A stretch of DNA of 64,000 bases from positions 1,984,001-2,048,000 of the forward strand of contig OZ244207.1 in the NCBI GenBank assembly GCA_965216875.1. Reading direction: 5' to 3'. The position numbers and the translations under genes were made by a program. Source of the DNA: Rubripirellula sp. GTDB lineage: Bacteria > Planctomycetota > Planctomycetia > Pirellulales > Pirellulaceae. This document shows positions 19,156 through 40,717 of this stretch, one piece after another; position 1 is the first letter of the stretch; each line of letters starts with the position of its first letter. Under the pieces are notes generated by a model that was given only the letters and a program-made list of their open reading frames with translations, did no database searches and was not told the DNA's origin.

Positions 19156-20109
19156 ATGTTGCTAACAGAACTATTCACTTTTTCGAAGGCTGCCCAAGTT
19201 GAGCCAGTTTCGCGTCAGCGTCGCGCATCGATCGCGCTCGGCGGCGGAGGCGCTCGCGGACTTGCACACTTGGGCGTCATGCAAGCGATCGGCGAGTCAG
19301 GAGTTCAAACCGAGCAAATCGTTGGCGTCAGCATGGGAAGTCTGGTCGGCGCACTCTGTGCCGTCGAGTCAGATTTCCAACGCGTGCAGGCGAAAGCGAT
19401 TGAACTTCTGCGCTCGCCGATCTTCCAACTCAAGCAGGAGATGCTATTCGGCGCCGAGATGCCAACTGAAGACGCCGAAGCGTCGGGAAGCTATTTTGCG
19501 TGGTATGGGCGTATCAAGAAGTACTTGGCGACACATCGAAAGCTTTCGCGAGCCGTCACAAGTCCCGCGTTGATGAGCGATCTGCCGCTTGTCGAAGCCG
19601 TTGACTACTTATTGCCCGACATTCAGATTCAAGAGACAGCGACCCCGCTGGCGATTGTTGCGATCGATCTCTACAGCGGTCATCGCGTTGTTTTAGAACA
19701 TGGATCGCTACGCGATGCCGTGCGGGCGTCGATCGCGATTCCTGGGTTTTTCCCGCCCGTACCATGGGGCGACATGTTGTTGTGCGACATCGGCGTCTTT
19801 GATGCGCTACCCGCTGAGCTCGCAAGAACCTATGCGAGTGACCTCACGATTGGTGTCGATGTGGGACAGGAGCATACGTCGATCAATCAATGTGCAACGG
19901 CGCTCGATGTGATGACGCGGATGCAAGATCTCGGGGAACTGATGCTCCGACGGCATACGCTGCAAGCTGCCGACCTGATCATACGCCCCGACGTGGGCAA
20001 CGTCGCTTGGTTCGATTTTCGCGAACCCGAACGATTGATTGAAGCCGGTCGCAAGTCCGCACATCGCGCACTCGCACGCTTTCTGGTTGAGGAGACTCAC
20101 GCGGCCTAG
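19156..20109 (+). CDS. Patatin-like phospholipase
   Basis: LGGGGARG, GVSMG nucleophile elbow, ASIAIPG and CDIG. Confidence 0.88.
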   Translation: MLLTELFTFSKAAQVEPVSRQRRASIALGGGGARGLAHLGVMQAIGESGVQTEQIVGVSMGSLVGALCAVESDFQRVQAKAIELLRSPIFQLKQEMLFGAEMPTEDAEASGSYFAWYGRIKKYLATHRKLSRAVTSPALMSDLPLVEAVDYLLPDIQIQETATPLAIVAIDLYSGHRVVLEHGSLRDAVRASIAIPGFFPPVPWGDMLLCDIGVFDALPAELARTYASDLTIGVDVGQEHTSINQCATALDVMTRMQDLGELMLRRHTLQAADLIIRPDVGNVAWFDFREPERLIEAGRKSAHRALARFLVEETHAA

Positions 20110-20130: not shown

Positions 20131-20211
20131 GTAGGGTGTGTGCTTGCACGCACCAGCAACAAGTTTCGAGTCGACGGCTGGAGGTTTGGTGCGTGCAAGC
20201 ACACACCCTAC
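20131..20211. repeat. REP doublet (REPIN-like) element 1
   Basis: GTAGGGTGTGTGCTTGCACGCACCA...TGGTGCGTGCAAGCACACACCCTAC, 81 bp. Confidence 0.9.
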
Positions 20212-20231
20212 GCAAACAGCGTGTCGTGGTA

Positions 20232-20600
20232 CTACCAACCGAAGTAGATCCGGTCGGCAACCCAAATCGTCACCAGCGGCGCGGCGGCGATCGACGCAAG
20301 CGAGAGTGTCATCAGCCTGGACCACCACGGAAGCGGACCCGCGAATGTCACGAAGGCACCATGGCTCAGGATGGTGACGCCTGCGAGAATTGGGTTTCGC
20401 AGCACCAACGCAAATTGGGTCGGACCCGCACAGTTCCCGCAGGAGCTGGTCAAGACTCCGCTTGTGATGTCGGGGATCAGAAGAGCGGCCCAAAGGAGAA
20501 GCACCATTTGCATCGTACCGAACCATGACAGCATGGTCGGCATCGGAACATCAAGCTGCGTCTCTTTAAGAGTGCCCCTGTCATCGGGCCGCTGCGCCAT
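20232..20600 (-). CDS. Hypothetical membrane protein (cargo ORF A)
   Basis: 122 aa ORF with about three hydrophobic segments, filling the gap between two REP doublets. Confidence 0.6.
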   Translation of the reverse strand: MAQRPDDRGTLKETQLDVPMPTMLSWFGTMQMVLLLWAALLIPDITSGVLTSSCGNCAGPTQFALVLRNPILAGVTILSHGAFVTFAGPLPWWSRLMTLSLASIAAAPLVTIWVADRIYFGW

Positions 20601-20640
20601 GTCTCAAACCCCAAGAAAGGTGTCAGGACCAATTCTCATT

Positions 20641-20720
20641 GTAGGGTGTGTGCTCGCACGCACCAGCAACCGATTTGGAAGCGATCGTTGGGATTTGGTG
20701 CGTGCAAGCACACACCCTAC
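20641..20720. repeat. REP doublet element 2
   Basis: Same inverted arms with a related spacer beginning CCAGCAAC, 80 bp. Confidence 0.9.
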
Positions 20721-20752
20721 GAAGTGGACCAGAAACAAGGGTGCCAGCTTCT

Positions 20753-21250
20753 CTACGCGTTGAGAAAGTCCCACAATCGCAGCGACACTCGGTCGGAATC
20801 TTCGGATAGGTGTTGCCTGAGGACAGATTTCCATTCATCGAGAGATTCGGGGGTGTACCCAACCGGAGCGGTGGTCATCGAATGCCATCTGCCTGTGAAG
20901 AAGCCACGATCGAGTGGCGGAAAATCGATCAAGATGAGATCGCGGTTTCCAAATGGGAGTATTCTTCGAACCTTTCTTGTACCGCGTTTCATTTGCCATG
21001 CGCGGCCGACTCGAAAGTGGCAATCGCCGAGTCTCGAGCGCAGTTTCCAAGAGCCCCAGGTGAGTTCGAGGTGCGAATTCGCGAAGGCGACGACCGGCAA
21101 TGAACTGCGGTTTGCCAGCAGCAGCGGTCCCTGCTTCCAAAGCTCAAAAAGGTGTTCCGGTATGGATTCAACGATCTTAATCTGCCGGGCCGGTCGTTCG
21201 CTCAAAATGGTTGCTCCCAATGAACAGTAATAGTCACCCATTAGGCACAT
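20753..21250 (-). CDS. Hypothetical protein (cargo ORF B)
   Basis: About 165 aa ORF filling the inter-repeat gap. The start was trimmed to lie outside element 3. Confidence 0.5.
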   Translation of the reverse strand: MCLMGDYYCSLGATILSERPARQIKIVESIPEHLFELWKQGPLLLANRSSLPVVAFANSHLELTWGSWKLRSRLGDCHFRVGRAWQMKRGTRKVRRILPFGNRDLILIDFPPLDRGFFTGRWHSMTTAPVGYTPESLDEWKSVLRQHLSEDSDRVSLRLWDFLNA

Positions 21251-21278
21251 TCGAGTCCGCAAGGCGGCGCCCTTTTCT

Positions 21279-21360
21279 GTAGGGTGTGTGCTCGCACGCA
21301 CCAGCAACAGTTTTCGATTCGACTGCAGGAGGTCTTGGTGCGTGCAAGCACACACCCTAC
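21279..21360. repeat. REP doublet element 3
   Basis: Same inverted arms, 82 bp. Confidence 0.9.
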
Positions 21361-21365
21361 GCAAG

Positions 21366-21674
21366 TCAGATCTGTATGGCCCATCCGGCGTCGCTGACAC
21401 TCTCGTTCTTGTCCAGCGTCAAGCACAACGCGAAGCCGCCACCACCACGCGTGTGCGGCTTGCCAACGAAGAAAAAGTAGGTGAGCTGCTCTTGTCCGTC
21501 TGGGCCGTGACGGCCCGAATAGTCACTGCTTCCGAGCACGCCGACGATTTGGGACTTGGTCGTGCCAATGAGAGATTCAAGCTCCGGCCGCGAAAAGTCC
21601 TGAGGGTAGCTCCCTTCTGGCAAGAGGCGGATCGATTCAAGCGTCTCGTGTAGTTCGGTCAACAGCGGGTTCAT
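21366..21674 (-). CDS. Hypothetical protein with SmpA/BamE-like motif (cargo ORF C)
   Basis: 102 aa from MNPLLTE. LIGTTKSQIVGVLG...LTYFF resembles the GMTxxQVxxxLGxP...WxY pattern. Confidence 0.55.
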   Translation of the reverse strand: MNPLLTELHETLESIRLLPEGSYPQDFSRPELESLIGTTKSQIVGVLGSSDYSGRHGPDGQEQLTYFFFVGKPHTRGGGGFALCLTLDKNESVSDAGWAIQI

Positions 21675-21762
21675 GAGCAAAGGGGTATGTTCTTGTGTTT
21701 GCCGGAAATGAACGTTGGTGGGTCTATTCAATCCAAAAAGCGTGTCAGGACTCAGTCCCGAC

Positions 21763-21840
21763 GTAGGGTGTGTGCTCGCACGCACCAGCAACAAGATTCG
21801 ATTCCACCACGAGAAATTTTGTGCGTGCAAGCACACCCAC
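21763..21840. repeat. REP doublet element 4 (right arm degenerate)
   Basis: Left arm intact. The right arm GTGCGTGCAAGCACACCCAC lacks the terminal CTAC. Confidence 0.85.
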
Positions 21841-21876
21841 GTCGCGAAGCCTAAATGAGGCCTCACAACCCTTCTA

Positions 21877-22392
21877 CTAGTCGTTAGGGGTGAAGTCGAG
21901 CTGTACAAACGGGCGAGGCTTCTCTTCTGAGAAGGGCTGCAGGATTTTGGCCGGCTTGTCATCAACGGAGCGAAAAACATCGGGCAACGGCAGTAGCTCA
22001 TCAAGGTATTCGAGTGCCACTTTTCCATGCAGCGCCTTCACGTCGCCGTTTCGAGCCCATGTGCCGCATGTTCCGCAGAGGGTTACCATCGAGGACGGTT
22101 TGCCCGGCCGCTTGATCGTTACAGCATAGGCGGGGCTGTGTCCACAAAAGGGTACGTTTGGATCGTCTGCTAGCTCCTTGCGTAAGATTTTCTTCAGTTT
22201 CGCCGCCTCGGCAACGTTTAGCCGACGCATCCCCAGAATGTCTGCTTCCCTCTTTTGCCATTGGGTCGACATCGTCGTTTCGTCCTCGATCGCACCGCGT
22301 GGATCGAGCAAATGAATGACAACGCGCTCAGGCTCACCTGCTCCGACAGAAGCGACGATGGCTATTGTGAAAAGGGCAACGAAACTTCGCAT
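21877..22392 (-). CDS. Secreted hypothetical protein with Cys/His motifs (cargo ORF D)
   Basis: Signal peptide MRSFVALFTIAIVASVGA, with FCGHSP and LCGTC. Confidence 0.65.
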   Translation of the reverse strand: MRSFVALFTIAIVASVGAGEPERVVIHLLDPRGAIEDETTMSTQWQKREADILGMRRLNVAEAAKLKKILRKELADDPNVPFCGHSPAYAVTIKRPGKPSSMVTLCGTCGTWARNGDVKALHGKVALEYLDELLPLPDVFRSVDDKPAKILQPFSEEKPRPFVQLDFTPND

Positions 22393-22439
22393 GACATTGA
22401 CCTGCAAATTCAAGTATTCAATCGAGCTCGAGGAGGTTT

Positions 22440-22463
22440 GGTGCGTGCAAGCATACGCCCTAC
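22440..22463 (-). repeat. Half element 5 (right arm plus spacer remnant)
   Basis: GGTGCGTGCAAGCATACGCCCTAC preceded by GGAGGTTT, as in the element 1 spacer. Confidence 0.8.
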
Positions 22464-22478
22464 GGGGTTATGAAGCGT

Positions 22479-22823
22479 CTAATCATCCATGGTGGCGTTG
22501 ACGTTGAATGGTTTTGAAAACCACACCAAGACTCCGATGGCGATGAACAGTCCCGACAGGATGAAGGTCAAGATGCGCATATAAATGTGCAAACCTCCCA
22601 CCGCTCGCACACGCGCTTCGACCGAATAGTCGGGCATCGCATACTCGGCTTGAAATGCCTCAACCTGTTGTTGGTCGATCAAGCGATAGGTGCTGAATTC
22701 ATGCACGGTGGCAATCGCATGCGCGTCGTGAATCCCCATGATAAGCAGCGGCAAAAACCAGGAAAGGACGGTGCCGAAGATGCAAAGCATGAGCAGAGTT
22801 TTTCGATGCTTCATGCTTTCCAT
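22479..22823 (-). CDS. Hypothetical two-TM membrane protein (cargo ORF E)
   Basis: 114 aa with two hydrophobic helices. The first ATG is 1 nt from element 6. Confidence 0.65.
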   Translation of the reverse strand: MESMKHRKTLLMLCIFGTVLSWFLPLLIMGIHDAHAIATVHEFSTYRLIDQQQVEAFQAEYAMPDYSVEARVRAVGGLHIYMRILTFILSGLFIAIGVLVWFSKPFNVNATMDD

Positions 22824-22824
22824 T

Positions 22825-22904
22825 GTAGCGTGTGTGCTTGCACGCACGAATCCTACAAAACCGAACGTGGTCCTTAGATTGGTGCGTGCGAGCACACACC
22901 CTAC
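22825..22904. repeat. REP doublet element 6, containing the queG stop codon
   Basis: GTAGCGTGTGTGCTTGCACGCACG...GGTGCGTGCGAGCACACACCCTAC, 80 bp. Confidence 0.9.
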
Positions 22905-24010
22905 GAAAGGTTTTGCGGTTTCATTGCGTCGACGATTTCGCGGAGCACGTCTTGGTCGGCTTCCTGTTGACGCCGTTGATTCAACAGCCTGACGCAGGTC
23001 TCGTTGCCAATGCGACCGAGTGCCCATGCCGATGCGGATCTCACGACCGGTTCGTCGTCTTGGAGTCCTTTGGCGAGTGCTTCGATCGCGGAGGTATCAC
23101 GTTGATTGCCCAGGACGATCGCGGCGTTTCGCAACACACCCCGACGACGGGTGCGCCAAAGTGGTGTCTTTCGAAAGCGAGCGCGGAATTCGTCGTCGTC
23201 AATCTCGAAGAGTTCTTTCAGCGACAGCGACTCGAATTCCGTTTCTGGCATCGCGGCCTTTTTGGTCGACTTGCGGTTCCAAGGACACACCTCTTGGCAG
23301 ACATCACAGCCGAAAAGCCAATCGCCGATCCCTTCGCGAAGTTCCACCGGCATCGGGCCCCGATGTTCGATCGTCAGGTAGCTGATGCATTTCGATGCAT
23401 CGAGCACATTGGGTGCTGGAAAGGCATCGGTCGGACATGCATCAAGGCATGCCGTGCAGGTTCCGCAATGCGCCGACTCATGGGGCATGTCGGCCGGCAG
23501 GTCGAGGTCAGTCAACAGGCAAGCAAGAAAGAAATAGCTGCCGAGTTGTTTGTTGAGCAGCAGTGTGTTTTTCCCTCGCCAACCGAGACCGGCCAACTGA
23601 GCGAATTCGCGTTCCATCAACGGTGCGGTATCAACAATCCCTCGAAAGTTGGCGTCAGGGCAATCCGCTTTGAGCGTTCGCGCGATTGACTTGAGTTTGG
23701 GATGGATCACATCGTGGTAGTCGATCCCCGACCAAACGTATCGCGCGACGCGTCCGTGACCCTGAGCTGCCGTACCCGATTGAGCGGCCGAATAGGGATA
23801 AGCGAGTACGACGATACTTTTTGCCGACGGGAGCACACCGCTGGGATGCCGATAGGCGTCTTGCCGATTCTTGAAATAGTCCATCTCGGCCGCATAGCCT
23901 GATTCAATCCAACGAACCAAGTCGGCGTAGCCCTTCGAATCGACCGCCGGCGCTATACCGCACAGTACAAAACCTTGGTCGCTTGCACTTTGGCGTATCA
24001 GGTCAAGCAT
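22901..24010 (-). CDS. queG: tRNA epoxyqueuosine(34) reductase QueG
   Basis: ARY..G.DYH, VDTAPLMER, GWRGKNT, CGTCTACLDACPT, CISYLTIE, FGCDVCQEVCPWN and C-terminal HEAT repeats. Confidence 0.95.
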   Translation of the reverse strand: MLDLIRQSASDQGFVLCGIAPAVDSKGYADLVRWIESGYAAEMDYFKNRQDAYRHPSGVLPSAKSIVVLAYPYSAAQSGTAAQGHGRVARYVWSGIDYHDVIHPKLKSIARTLKADCPDANFRGIVDTAPLMEREFAQLAGLGWRGKNTLLLNKQLGSYFFLACLLTDLDLPADMPHESAHCGTCTACLDACPTDAFPAPNVLDASKCISYLTIEHRGPMPVELREGIGDWLFGCDVCQEVCPWNRKSTKKAAMPETEFESLSLKELFEIDDDEFRARFRKTPLWRTRRRGVLRNAAIVLGNQRDTSAIEALAKGLQDDEPVVRSASAWALGRIGNETCVRLLNQRRQQEADQDVLREIVDAMKPQNLS

Positions 24011-24072
24011 GTTGTTGGAGCGGTGCCTGTATCAAAACGGGAGCCATCGTCGCCGTTCGCGCTGAGGGAATA

Positions 24073-24134
24073 GTCGCCTTTCGCTCCGCGAAAGTAGCGT
24101 TTGTGTGCGCAACTTTCGCGGAGCGAAAGGCGAC
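24073..24134. repeat. Palindromic intergenic repeat (family D)
   Basis: Perfect 23 bp arms GTCGCCTTTCGCTCCGCGAAAGT / ACTTTCGCGGAGCGAAAGGCGAC. A second copy lies at 40409. Confidence 0.85.
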
Positions 24135-24150
24135 ATTGAGAAGACATTGA

Positions 24151-33374: not shown

Positions 33375-33498
33375 AACACTCTCCCTTTGGAGAGTCGGGC
33401 TTTAAGGCCCGGAGAGGGATTGTTTTGTGACACTCATGCCCTCCCCGGACTTCAGCGTCCGACCCTCCCGCGAGCGGGCGGGTGATTGTTGGAACGCG
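33375..33498 (+). repeat. ~124 bp multi-hairpin element (family B), left copy
   Basis: AACACTCTCCC...GGGTGATTGTTGGAACGCG, roughly 90% identical by eye to the reverse complement of 35776-35897. Confidence 0.85.
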
Positions 33499-33505
33499 AT
33501 TCAAA

Positions 33506-33537
33506 AACACTCTCCCTTGGGGTGATTTTCGGAACGC
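33506..33537 (+). repeat. Internally deleted copy of the family B element
   Basis: AACACTCTCCCTT joined directly to GGGGTGATTTTCGGAACGC, i.e. both ends with no middle. Confidence 0.65.
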
Positions 33538-33597
33538 ACGTTTACCTGGGCAAGCACTTCAGCTCATCGTGCCAGTGCTTGAGGTTGAGGACCGGCC

Positions 33598-33969
33598 ATG
33601 ACGGACGAACCTAAATCAGACGCGAGCTCAGACCAGTTTCCCCCTGGATACTCTCGTCCAACTCGCAAAACGCCTCCGTCTTTTCCTAGACGACTCTCGA
33701 TCACTCGGCTGATGCAGGCAACGGCCTGTTGTGCGCTCGCATTCGCTGTCGTTCCCTTAGTCTTTGGTCCAGACGCGCTCATCCTGTACACGCTGATCGG
33801 CCTTCTTGTTGCGTTGGTAGCCGCGAAACACGGTGGTGCAGATGCGGCAGTGAAAGGTTTTATTGTGGGGCTCTTCTTGGTTCCAGTCGTGTTGGTTGCA
33901 GTCGCCCTTTTTGTTGCCATTGTCGCGGCAATCCATCAAGTGGCAGATTCCGTCATGGGCTGGTTCTGA
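33598..33969 (+). CDS. Hypothetical membrane protein
   Basis: 123 aa with three hydrophobic segments after RLSITRLM. Confidence 0.7.
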   Translation: MTDEPKSDASSDQFPPGYSRPTRKTPPSFPRRLSITRLMQATACCALAFAVVPLVFGPDALILYTLIGLLVALVAAKHGGADAAVKGFIVGLFLVPVVLVAVALFVAIVAAIHQVADSVMGWF

Positions 33970-34119
33970 AAACGGTAAACGCGGGAGACGACAACTCACG
34001 AGCTCGGCTGGGTTGTGACTGATTGACATCAAAGTTGTTTGCCCAAGGCAACGTGTAGTAACATTGGGCAGAACCCATGTCTTGGCCTACTCACATTCAA
34101 ATCAATTTAGAGCCTTAGA

Positions 34120-34569
34120 ATGCTACTTGCAGTTCTTTATGTTTCCGTTGCAACCGTAGCGTCAATTGGTCAGTCGGATCGGTCAGCAGAACAAAGCCAA
34201 CGACTGCTCGAAGGCAGTTGGGAAGCGCACTTGACCGCAAAAGTTTCAGTTTTGATGGAGATCGATGGTGACCAAATCAAGCTCTTTACCGTCCGTGACG
34301 GCCAGAAATCTCATTCATGGAATGGGAAACTGTCTGTTTCGAAGTCCGATGCAGAACGACATTTGGATTGGAAAGATCGCGTTTCGATCAACGGCAAGCT
34401 GCCAGACAATCAATGCCTCTACCGCCTGCTTGGCGACACGTTGTTGCTGATCGGGGGCGGACCGGATCGTCGTCCCGATCGATTTTTGTCAGGGCACGGA
34501 ACCGAACCGAAGACCATGATCTTCACCCGTGTCGAAGAAGGCAGAAAGCAATCTCGCAAGAGACGGTGA
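34120..34569 (+). CDS. TIGR03067-like planctomycete domain protein
   Basis: Signal peptide, LEGSW, IDGD, HLDW, LYRLLGDTLLL and RPDRF. Confidence 0.75.
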   Translation: MLLAVLYVSVATVASIGQSDRSAEQSQRLLEGSWEAHLTAKVSVLMEIDGDQIKLFTVRDGQKSHSWNGKLSVSKSDAERHLDWKDRVSINGKLPDNQCLYRLLGDTLLLIGGGPDRRPDRFLSGHGTEPKTMIFTRVEEGRKQSRKRR

Positions 34570-34651
34570 GACTGTTGGGCCGACGTGCTGTTTGTCTCTC
34601 ACTCTGTTCGTGAACGAACACCCTGCGCACGAGTTTGGTTGGTGGTCGATC

Positions 34652-35320
34652 GTGTTTCGAAACTTGTTCATCGATAGGTTTTTGATTCGAGTTCTTGCCA
34701 TTAATTTGTTGATCGTGGCAGGCTGCAAGATCGAACAAAAACGCTTCGACCCTCAGCCGGACCGGGCTTTTCTGGAGGACAGGTGGAATGGGTACACGTT
34801 CGACCGCGTTACGGCGCAATATGCGCTTTCGTTGCAAAAACCTGCGCCAGGGCTAAACCGTCGCTCGGGCCAGAGCATTCCGATCGTTTCGAACCAGCCC
34901 GATGCCCCGAGTGATCTGTCGAGCCTGGCCGTTGTTCGACCGACGCACGCACTTGTCTCGCTCGATTTTGTTGCAGGTGTTCCATCGAAATCCAAGGTTA
35001 CGGTGACGGTTCGCTGGCCAGAAGAATCGATTCCTCCGCCAACCAATTCGTGGACAGAAGAAACATTTGAGTCGAACGTCAGATTTGAAGACGTTTGTGA
35101 ACTGCTTAATGAAAGCGAGCAGTTTCGCTGTGATGAAGAAGATCCCTACTACCGGCCATTACGACTGAGCGAGATGCCGACACGATTCGGTTCCGGGGAG
35201 ATGGTTGAACTGCAAATTTCAGGGCCAAACCCAAAGTCTCACTACGAAAGAAGGGTCGAATATCATTCGGGGGCCGTCCTGTGGCGGATTGCGCGACTCG
35301 CATGCCCCGATCTAGGTTAG
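34652..35320 (+). CDS. Hypothetical lipoprotein
   Basis: Lipobox-like LLIVAGC after a GTG start. The ORF-track start at 34529 overlaps the upstream gene. Confidence 0.55.
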   Translation: MFRNLFIDRFLIRVLAINLLIVAGCKIEQKRFDPQPDRAFLEDRWNGYTFDRVTAQYALSLQKPAPGLNRRSGQSIPIVSNQPDAPSDLSSLAVVRPTHALVSLDFVAGVPSKSKVTVTVRWPEESIPPPTNSWTEETFESNVRFEDVCELLNESEQFRCDEEDPYYRPLRLSEMPTRFGSGEMVELQISGPNPKSHYERRVEYHSGAVLWRIARLACPDLG

Positions 35321-35330
35321 GCGACACGAC

Positions 35331-35666
35331 ATGGAAAATTTTCTGTTTGGTCTCGTCGTTGGTTGCTTCCTCACCATTGTCCTCATTCACACGGCACAGT
35401 GGTTCGCGATCATGATTCCTTGGCAGCGCGCGATGATGTCGGGCGCGTCTGTAAGCGTGTTCCAGATTCTTCGGATGCGATTGAAAGGCTGTCCGGTTAC
35501 GTTTCTCGTTGATGCGTACGTTGCCTTCGTACATTCGGGCGAAGAGATCGATCTAGGGCAAGTTGAAGCGTGCTACCTTGCTCGAAAGCACGAGATTCGT
35601 GAGGATGACATGGGCGCATTCCTGAAGATGTTGAAAGAATTTGCAAGAACTGGGCAGAGTCCTTGA
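35331..35666 (+). CDS. Short protein resembling the N-terminal part of flotillin-like FloA/YqfA
   Basis: TM helix then W.RA..SG..VS...I..MRL...P...LV.A......G......QVEA.YLA, matching the FloA N-terminal pattern. Confidence 0.7.
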   Translation: MENFLFGLVVGCFLTIVLIHTAQWFAIMIPWQRAMMSGASVSVFQILRMRLKGCPVTFLVDAYVAFVHSGEEIDLGQVEACYLARKHEIREDDMGAFLKMLKEFARTGQSP

Positions 35667-35750
35667 GCCGCCGGCCGTGAGGCCTCGGGCCCCTCCCAAG
35701 GTATGCTGTAAAATTCAATGCCCGGCCGCTTACGCGATCACGGCTCAAGG
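35661..35750. repeat. Inverted-repeat element (family C)
   Basis: CCTTGAGCCG...CGGCTCAAGG termini with internal imperfect palindromes. It contains the TGA stop of the upstream gene. Confidence 0.7.
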
Positions 35751-35775
35751 TTTCTTGCCTGTGAGCGAAGAGACG

Positions 35776-35897
35776 CGCGCTCCAACAATCACCCTCCCGC
35801 TTGCGGGAGGGTCGGACGCAAAGTCCGGGGAGGGAATGAGTTTCGAAAACAAACCCTCTCCGGGCCTTAGAGCCCGACTCTCCCAAGGGAGAGTGTT
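35776..35897 (-). repeat. Family B element, right (inverted) copy
   Basis: Reverse-complement match to 33375-33498. Confidence 0.85.
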
Positions 35898-40302: not shown

Positions 40303-40408
40303 CCTTCCAATTACGAGCGGTCGTGGTTTGCATCGCGAACCACGGCCGTATTCTCAACGCTCGAGATCGTGTGTTGGCTACAGGCGCATGTTCATTCGCA
40401 GGCCGAAT

Positions 40409-40469
40409 GTCGCCTTTCGCTCCGCGAAAGTAGCGTCCACAATCGCAACTTTTGCAGAGCAAAAGGCGA
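40409..40469. repeat. Family D palindromic repeat, decayed right arm
   Basis: Left arm identical to the 24073 copy. The right arm has substitutions. Confidence 0.8.
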
Positions 40470-40717
40470 GTGTGCCGAAGCTCGGCACAAAAGCAATCAC
40501 AGCCTCACTGAGTGGGACCTTCGTTTGAAACCCAGCCCTTTGGTGGCCTGTGGGAAGATGCCGGCTAAAGGTCGGTACTACGGCTTGTAGAATCGGAACT
40601 TCACCGTGACCGCGGAATCCTATGCGCGGTCAGTGGGCCCCCGAATCGAAGACACTTTGGTATCATCTGGGGGTCCAATTCGATTCGCCTCTTACCCGCT
40701 CACGCCAAGGTGTCGCA

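Follow-up and report, generated by a model that had tools for sequence, protein, structure and literature searches.

An array of small genes, three of them from integron-cassette families, interleaved with REP doublets in a Rubripirellula genome

We analyzed a window of 64,000 nucleotides (nt) from the genome of a Rubripirellula sp. (assembly GCA_965216875.1, contig OZ244207.1; C1:1984001-2048000 of a host genome made up of one contig of 8.26 Mb), which carries, between a patatin-like gene and queG, an array of six elements (E1 to E6) of one 23-nt GTAG family of repetitive extragenic palindromes (REPs), strictly interleaved with five open reading frames (ORFs; o1 to o5) on the minus strand. 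A preliminary description of this DNA had reported the alternation of six elements with five co-oriented ORFs, and the coordinates, gaps and strands were confirmed. We give roughly even credence to the reading that this is a stranded cassette array, in which local copies of a single REP doublet took the place of the attC sites and which is now probably inert or frozen.

Repeat elements of the array

The gaps between successive elements measure 429, 558, 402, 597 and 361 bp, each holding one ORF, and the distances from the stop codons of these ORFs to the next element are 20, 32, 5, 33 and 15 nt. The stop codon of queG is itself the TAG within the GTAG of E6. An in-frame ATG does lie 1 nt past E6, although the homologues of o5 align from the second ATG, at 22814. 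A stretch of about 30 nt flanking E2 is repeated beside E4, and corresponds to half of another small inverted repeat, which a few other sites also carry. A promoter and terminator scan of the array gave no promoter sites and one terminator-like site versus 5.3 expected from shuffling, a result with no bearing on read-through from queG.

Across the host genome, the 23-nt consensus is present in 113 exact copies and in 208 copies within 4 mismatches, forming 149 elements of which 32 are plain doublets; inverted doublets fold as long hairpins. The array is the only six-element cluster among the 123 clusters of this family, and the longest chain obtained in 20,000 uniform plus 20,000 gene-junction shuffles had four elements. 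Only 2 of 3,819 long ORFs have this REP family on both sides. When 14 repeat families were scanned across the genome, no other same-family chain of more than three elements with gene-sized gaps was found.

The polarized spacer attributed earlier to the first four elements was also found to be particular to this locus. Of the 208 family copies, 4 have a spacer that starts with CCAGCAAC, every one in this array, and the spacers of E1 to E4 share identities of 0.66-0.83, compared with 0.50 +/- 0.11 for 620 other doublet pairs, whose maximum was 0.75 save for one tandem pair at 0.94. Because of this spacer identity, the remnant of the same spacer in E5 and the flank common to E2 and E4, the elements E1 to E5 were shown, as judged from their sequences, to be local copies of one doublet, in one polarity and each downstream of a cargo gene. 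The spacer of E6 has identities of 0.54-0.65 with those of the other array elements, and E6 is probably an independent doublet.

The assignment of the repeat to the REPs associated with REP-associated tyrosine transposases (RAYTs) was upheld. In another genome of our collection (G265, contig C110) a RAYT gene (NF047646, 188 bits) has doublets of this REP family on both sides, and of 110 doublet loci, drawn from planctomycetes and Rhodobacteraceae, at least 7 had a RAYT match, showing that the array repeat is a RAYT-type REP. The search for a RAYT flanked by this REP family, which had been recommended as a check, found none in the host genome, either among the three genes with PF01797 or among nine stretches detected by tblastn. 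Four RAYT-like genes of the host, at 0.508, 1.539, 4.788 and 4.961 Mb, are each accompanied by another REP family of their own, the nearest copy of the array's family being at least 5.9 kb from any RAYT match; resident RAYTs share 50% and 42% identity with that of G265. The 64-kb window contains neither a RAYT nor an integrase.

Among 300 genomes of the host's family, the REP was present within one mismatch in 6, with 1-13 copies each, and in neither of the two congeners. It was also found at four loci in viral contigs, and a spacer-specific pattern had no match in metagenome contigs. Both planctomycetes and Rhodobacteraceae carry this REP family (doublet loci L131-L240), and its distribution, along with the RAYT matches at some of these loci, hints at REPtron transfer between phyla.

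Two further loci bear on how such doublets behave. At C1:3600440-3601760, a gene for a 340-aa protein without Pfam family, with only distant matches in 2 of 5 genomes, lies between doublets with 94% identical spacers and common flanks, and looks as if inserted by repeat duplication. In another planctomycete (L147:5384-6720), two paralogous membrane-protein genes each stand behind a related doublet, which is a doublet-plus-gene tandem duplication.

Cargo genes and attC sites

In the flanks of o2 homologues lie 90-nt sites that are bounded by AAC and GTT and fold into hairpins; these were identified as attC sites. A profile seeded with 17 of them and extended with the host genome's own sites detected a co-oriented attC beside the gene at 21 of 36 homologue loci of o2, o4 and o5, with attC on both sides in 14. 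By gene, attC adjoins 12 of 20 loci for o2 (27 homologues), 4 of 10 for o4 (19 homologues) and 5 of 6 for o5 (six loci in five genomes, including a 59% identical cassette in genome G168). Some o2 and o4 loci had been used in training; among loci outside the training set, attC was present at 5 of 6 for o5 and at 2 of 4 for o4 (the latter from metagenomes). A control on 29 queG loci gave no matches. By homology, o2, o4 and o5 were thus shown to belong to integron-cassette families, and the integron likeness proposed earlier proved stronger than claimed, since three of the cargo families are attC-flanked cassettes elsewhere.

Clear homologues were found for all cargo ORFs except o1, which had weak matches only, without attC, among 317 genomes (best E 5.9e-5). 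Three were found for o3, which lacks the hydrophobic N-terminus of the closest one. Named homologues of o2 and o4 come from Pirellulaceae and other planctomycetes, the Atlas matches of o1 and o4 are unnamed clusters, and neither Pfam nor PADLOC gave a name to any of the five proteins. The o2 product is predicted to adopt a PH-domain-like fold (predicted local distance difference test [pLDDT] score 87.8; best Z 6.6, a middling value, with a root mean square deviation of 3.1 over 82 aligned residues), and the o4 model (pLDDT 78.6) is most similar, with an equally middling Z of 6.4, to a putative lipoprotein. A check for REP-flanked copies of the cargo elsewhere was negative: each cargo gene is present only once in the host genome, and none of the 36 homologue loci has this REP family or a GTAG doublet within 350 nt.

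No attC was detected in the array by nhmmer at E 10, by a covariance model or by half-site scores, the same profile finding 80 sites elsewhere in the genome. This agrees with the preliminary description, which had noted neither attC sites in the array nor a RAYT or integrase in the window; an integron integrase (IntI; TIGR02249, 297 bits, cut-off 265) is nevertheless encoded about 190 kb from the array, at 1.815 Mb. Of 97 attC profile matches in the host genome, 80 fall into four arrays of 12, 7, 34 and 27 sites, and integrase-less ones lie at 238-246 kb, 1.143-1.147 Mb and 3.522-3.542 Mb. The REP-separated array resembles these in having one gene per gap, one orientation and units of 360-600 bp. 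The complete chromosomal integron (C1:1791000-1816538) has an unusually long IntI (523-aa ORF) and more than 30 attC sites. Comparison of the element spacers with 856 attC sites revealed no recognizable derivation. Two candidate attC remnants failed given the number of tests: upstream of o2, part of a 3' half with a score of 4.5 (about the 96th percentile), and behind E1, 12 letters resembling a 5' start, matched by 3.6% of background.

At the junctions, the doublets occupy the attC positions of homologous cassettes, but with no fixed register. Downstream of o2 the doublet begins 35 nt past the last aligned codon, and the crossover of two homologues lies at 33 nt; in the o2 homologues of loci L082 and L083 the last 17 codons are encoded by attC itself, and the tail of o2 is equally long. 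Because the doublet distances are off register and o3 is without the N-terminus of its homologue, the junctions look like the product of an imprecise replacement, not of site-specific recombination at the crossover of attC.

Table 1. Features of the array and its bounding genes (positions within the 64,000-nt window).
Feature	Position	Strand	Description
Patatin-like gene	19156..20109	+	Pfam PF01734, E 1.8e-27; convergent host gene bounding the array
E1	20131..20211	.	Intact REP doublet, GTAG outside; DNA hairpin of -35.7 kcal/mol
o1	20232..20600	-	122 aa, probable membrane protein; no Pfam family
E2 flank	20611..20640	.	About 30 nt common to E2 and E4; family D6
E2	20641..20720	.	Intact REP doublet
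o2	20753..21205	-	About 150 aa, TTG start inferred from homologues; integron-cassette family
E3	21279..21360	.	Intact REP doublet
o3	21366..21674	-	102 aa; closest homologue P0050, 45% identical, E 5.8e-14
E4 flank	21733..21762	.	Second copy of the ~30-nt flank; terminator-like hairpin on the minus strand
E4	21763..21843	.	REP doublet; outer end of one arm damaged
o4	21877..22392	-	171 aa, predicted signal peptide; integron-cassette family
E5	22405..22463	.	One arm (22441-22463) plus remnant of the common spacer; other arm lost
o5	22479..22814	-	111 aa, probable membrane protein; integron-cassette family
E6	22825..22904	.	REP doublet of the same family, more distant spacer; provides queG stop codon
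queG	22901..24010	-	Epoxyqueuosine reductase, Pfam PF08331 and PF13484; host gene upstream of the array, syntenic in G002

The GC-skew maximum, which likely marks the terminus, lies at 2.10 Mb, some 0.1 Mb away from the array. Elsewhere in the window, a doublet of another repeat family is found upstream of queG (24067-24137), with an inverted copy at 40406-40476, and inverted composite repeats of 52, 44 and 36 nt enclose about 2.3 kb behind an smc-like gene (33375-35897).

The interval was compared across relatives, as the preliminary description had advised. In G002, a member of the same genus, the flanking genes are syntenic (80% identity for the patatin-like gene) and the 4.3-kb interval holds four unrelated ORFs, with no attC match and one doublet of another REP family, implying that the site is variable without the repeats of the array; G002 is a distant relative and lacks this REP. 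Its interval (L034:7980-12326) encodes a 220-aa protein without Pfam match, a 3-keto-disaccharide hydrolase, a metallo-beta-lactamase-fold protein and a hydrolase fragment. The other congener, G001, has no syntenic locus. For a close strain (run X6, about 94-98% identical), contigs carry E4-o4 and o4-E5-o5-E6-queG, so the arrangement is no assembly artefact. These contigs cover the stretch from the patatin-like gene to the first arm of E1 (end 20155) and positions 21762-23911; depth was 0 in a bin inside o2 and 4.6 in the o3 bin, and no contig reliably joins E1 to E4. A doublet-to-doublet loss or gain of o1-o3 in this strain would fit such coverage, but an uncovered stretch is no evidence and the contigs break at repeats in any case; the one apparent joint, of 20211 to 21761, has only 24 letters on one side and appears in the window's own sample as well.

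Origin of the array

To account for a stranded cassette array with replaced attC sites, we envisage that an integrase would have parked cassettes in the convergent gap behind queG, like those of the three other integrase-less arrays. A doublet would then have been copied locally, either by the RAYT of its family acting on single-stranded DNA or by short tandem duplication, and the copying could have taken some flank along, as at E2 and E4. The attC hairpins may have been deleted at or after arrival of the doublets, with imprecise ends, which would put the genes out of integrase control. The array would now be frozen, as suggested by the failure to find a matching RAYT and by the damage to two elements, while its direct repeats might still permit loss or swapping of whole gene-plus-doublet units by homologous recombination. 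Any expression of the cargo would putatively come through read-through from queG. The attC-bearing ancestor, the copying enzyme and the order of events are the parts of this scheme that we infer.

Other loci of the host show how far the pattern extends. A second run, at C1:2211585-2214975, has co-oriented cassette-type genes (a PP2C-like gene 69% identical to a cassette, DUF1963 and DUF4304) between REPs of two families, with no attC match. In all three integrase-less arrays of the host and in one array of G265, the last gene has a downstream REP instead of an attC (C1:246235, 1142212, 3521136 and G265:C184, about 28, 262, 0 and 30 nt behind the gene, respectively), and the copy at 246235 is the only other copy with the spacer start of E1 and E5. 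Four of eight other close cassette homologues (at least 45% identity, outside arrays) touch a REP, versus a background of 36%, so that cassette-like genes beside REPs are not enriched genome-wide.

Several observations weigh against the replacement of attC sites by doublets. Cassette kinship was established for o2, o4 and o5 only, not for o1 or o3, and 15 of the 36 homologue loci have no adjoining attC. No significant attC remnant was found at the junctions, where the best scores in sets of 24 and 12 tests came to about the 96th percentile, so that an attC-bearing ancestor at this site can only be deduced; nor did we find a genome with these five genes together plus attC. The agreement of 35 with 33 nt is true of o2 alone, not of o4 or o5. 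The REPs at array ends lose weight because a REP lies behind 29% of all long ORFs in the host genome, and the far end of the main integron has none. In the cassette-array loci retrieved from other genomes, which contain 898 attC matches, no strict GTAG doublet was detected, a single doublet with one end damaged being present behind an array in G265, implying that intermediates are rare.

An active REP capture platform with a RAYT acting in trans, which the preliminary description had put forward, was not shown: no matching RAYT was found, the junctions have no fixed register, E4 and E5 are damaged and cassette-like genes show no genome-wide enrichment next to REPs. A capture process is nonetheless conceivable, if unlikely in our judgment, in which a RAYT would cleave single-stranded DNA close to a doublet and connect it with DNA from outside, for instance excised cassette circles, with the doublet duplicated each time, the doublets acting as attC and the array growing unit by unit. 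The related doublet of the same polarity downstream of each cargo gene, the common flank of E2 and E4, the gene of 340 aa between doublets at 3.60 Mb and the tandem units of L147 are all of the kind that such a process would leave. The variable junctions would agree with variable cleavage sites, and TnpA-REP cuts near REPs and joins strands in vitro according to passages of PMC8266576. Against it stand the host genome without a detected RAYT flanked by this family, spacers that have diverged to 66-83% identity, the damage to E4 and E5, the absence of REP flanks at all 36 cargo homologue loci and the near-background contact of other cassette homologues with REPs. Moreover, no comparable array was present in 110 doublet loci of other genomes (80 with full flanks), the gene-sized gaps examined there containing RAYTs, tandem paralogues or single genes. 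A correspondingly doubtful extension is that REP doublets and RAYT constitute a second, integrase-independent system drawing on the integron cassette pool, in which each capture would duplicate the doublet, drop the attC and align the genes behind a host promoter.

Another alternative, which we consider improbable, is an ordinary variable islet in a convergent gap, where REPs settled behind stop codons and the kinship with cassettes is incidental. The host genome has at least 14 short repeat families with about 1,250 elements, 62 of the 208 copies of this family lie within 45 nt after a stop codon, and the unrelated content of the G002 interval indicates that the site varies anyway. The common descent of E1 to E5 weakens this explanation, because independent insertions would not share a spacer unique to this array; the six-element chain was never reached in shuffles, and the lack of every attC beside cassette genes is left unexplained. 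Recently gained Pseudomonas genes, in addition, tend toward REP deserts in the data given in part of PMC3390384.

If the repeats came first, an integrase could have put cassettes into the linkers of tandem doublets at non-canonical attG sites, with later deletion of attC. This order of events, which we hold to be quite improbable, has a possible starting point in a gene-free tandem cluster of the same family (G265:C268, three doublets about 140-240 bp apart), and would accommodate the linker sequence that E2 and E4 have in common and the genome-wide insertion by integrases at GWT sites described in a section of bioRxiv 2022.09.11.507474. It requires that each linker received one cassette and no more, and that every cassette has the same orientation, and there is no homology among linkers beyond E2/E4.

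Very improbable, finally, is that the integron integrase recombines the doublet itself in place of an attC. As an 80-nt single-strand hairpin, it has the size and position of an attC, an integrase is present in the genome, and the first seven letters of the REP agree at 6 of 7 positions with the attC core-site consensus, which counts in favor of a substitute site. On the other hand, there is no AAC/GTT box at the base of the stem, the core-like letters are oriented opposite to those of attC, and the doublet gives no match to the attC model. The GTA of the REP is also unlike the GWT attG consensus reported for IntI1 in Escherichia coli in part of bioRxiv 2022.09.11.507474.

Significance and relation to known systems

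If the stranded-array reading is correct, this relic would show a fate of cassettes that attC-based tools cannot see, with genes out of integrase control and lying between REP doublets, and a frozen array of this type would escape integron searches. Some runs of small orphan genes could have originated in this way, and cassettes could have become domesticated by it; IntI/attC and RAYT/REP, both of them systems based on single-strand hairpins, would moreover be linked at identical positions. Should the doublets be sites of an active process, the host role of RAYTs would become directly testable with the G265 RAYT and E1-E4; and if a second acquisition system did exist, the RAYT, a conserved transposase without an agreed host benefit, would gain a role in gene acquisition. 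The function of RAYTs is described as unknown in a passage of bioRxiv 2024.07.17.603846, and the parallel between TnpA-REP and IntI is drawn in PMC8266576, in the part available, as an analogy only. No published report of REP doublets replacing attC was found in open-access full text.

Individual components of the proposed history have precedents, at least in portions of the respective sources: tandem clusters of REP doublets forming hairpins (REPINs) with common flanks (PMC3116915), reiteration of REP clusters along with flanking DNA and loss of REPtrons through deletion (PMC3733652), and a proposed loss of attC by slippage (bioRxiv 2022.09.11.507474). Like the attG-inserted cassettes of the last of these sources, the array would consist of cassette genes that sit away from the integron and may have been domesticated when attC was lost; unlike them, it has five consecutive genes, each with a related REP behind it, and a REP end that is not GWT.

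With clusters of attC sites lacking an integrase (CALINs), whose definition and origins are given in a section of PMC4889954, the array shares co-oriented single-gene units from the cassette pool, located away from the integrase in a genome with an IntI, and differs in having no detectable attC and a REP element at each junction instead. With the REPINs and REPtrons portrayed in parts of PMC3116915, PMC3733652 and PMC8266576, it has in common GTAG palindromes, inverted pairs, about 200 copies, positions beside stop codons, a G265 RAYT with this family on both sides and a RAYT match in at least 7 of the 110 doublet loci, whereas no matching RAYT was found in the host genome and the array doublets alternate with genes of apparent cassette origin. 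Ordered tandem REPIN clusters or bacterial interspersed mosaic elements likewise consist of related doublets in one orientation with some common flank; in the array, by contrast, the spacers are only 66-83% identical, and each unit is separated from the next not by a short non-coding linker but by a different gene of 300-500 bp.

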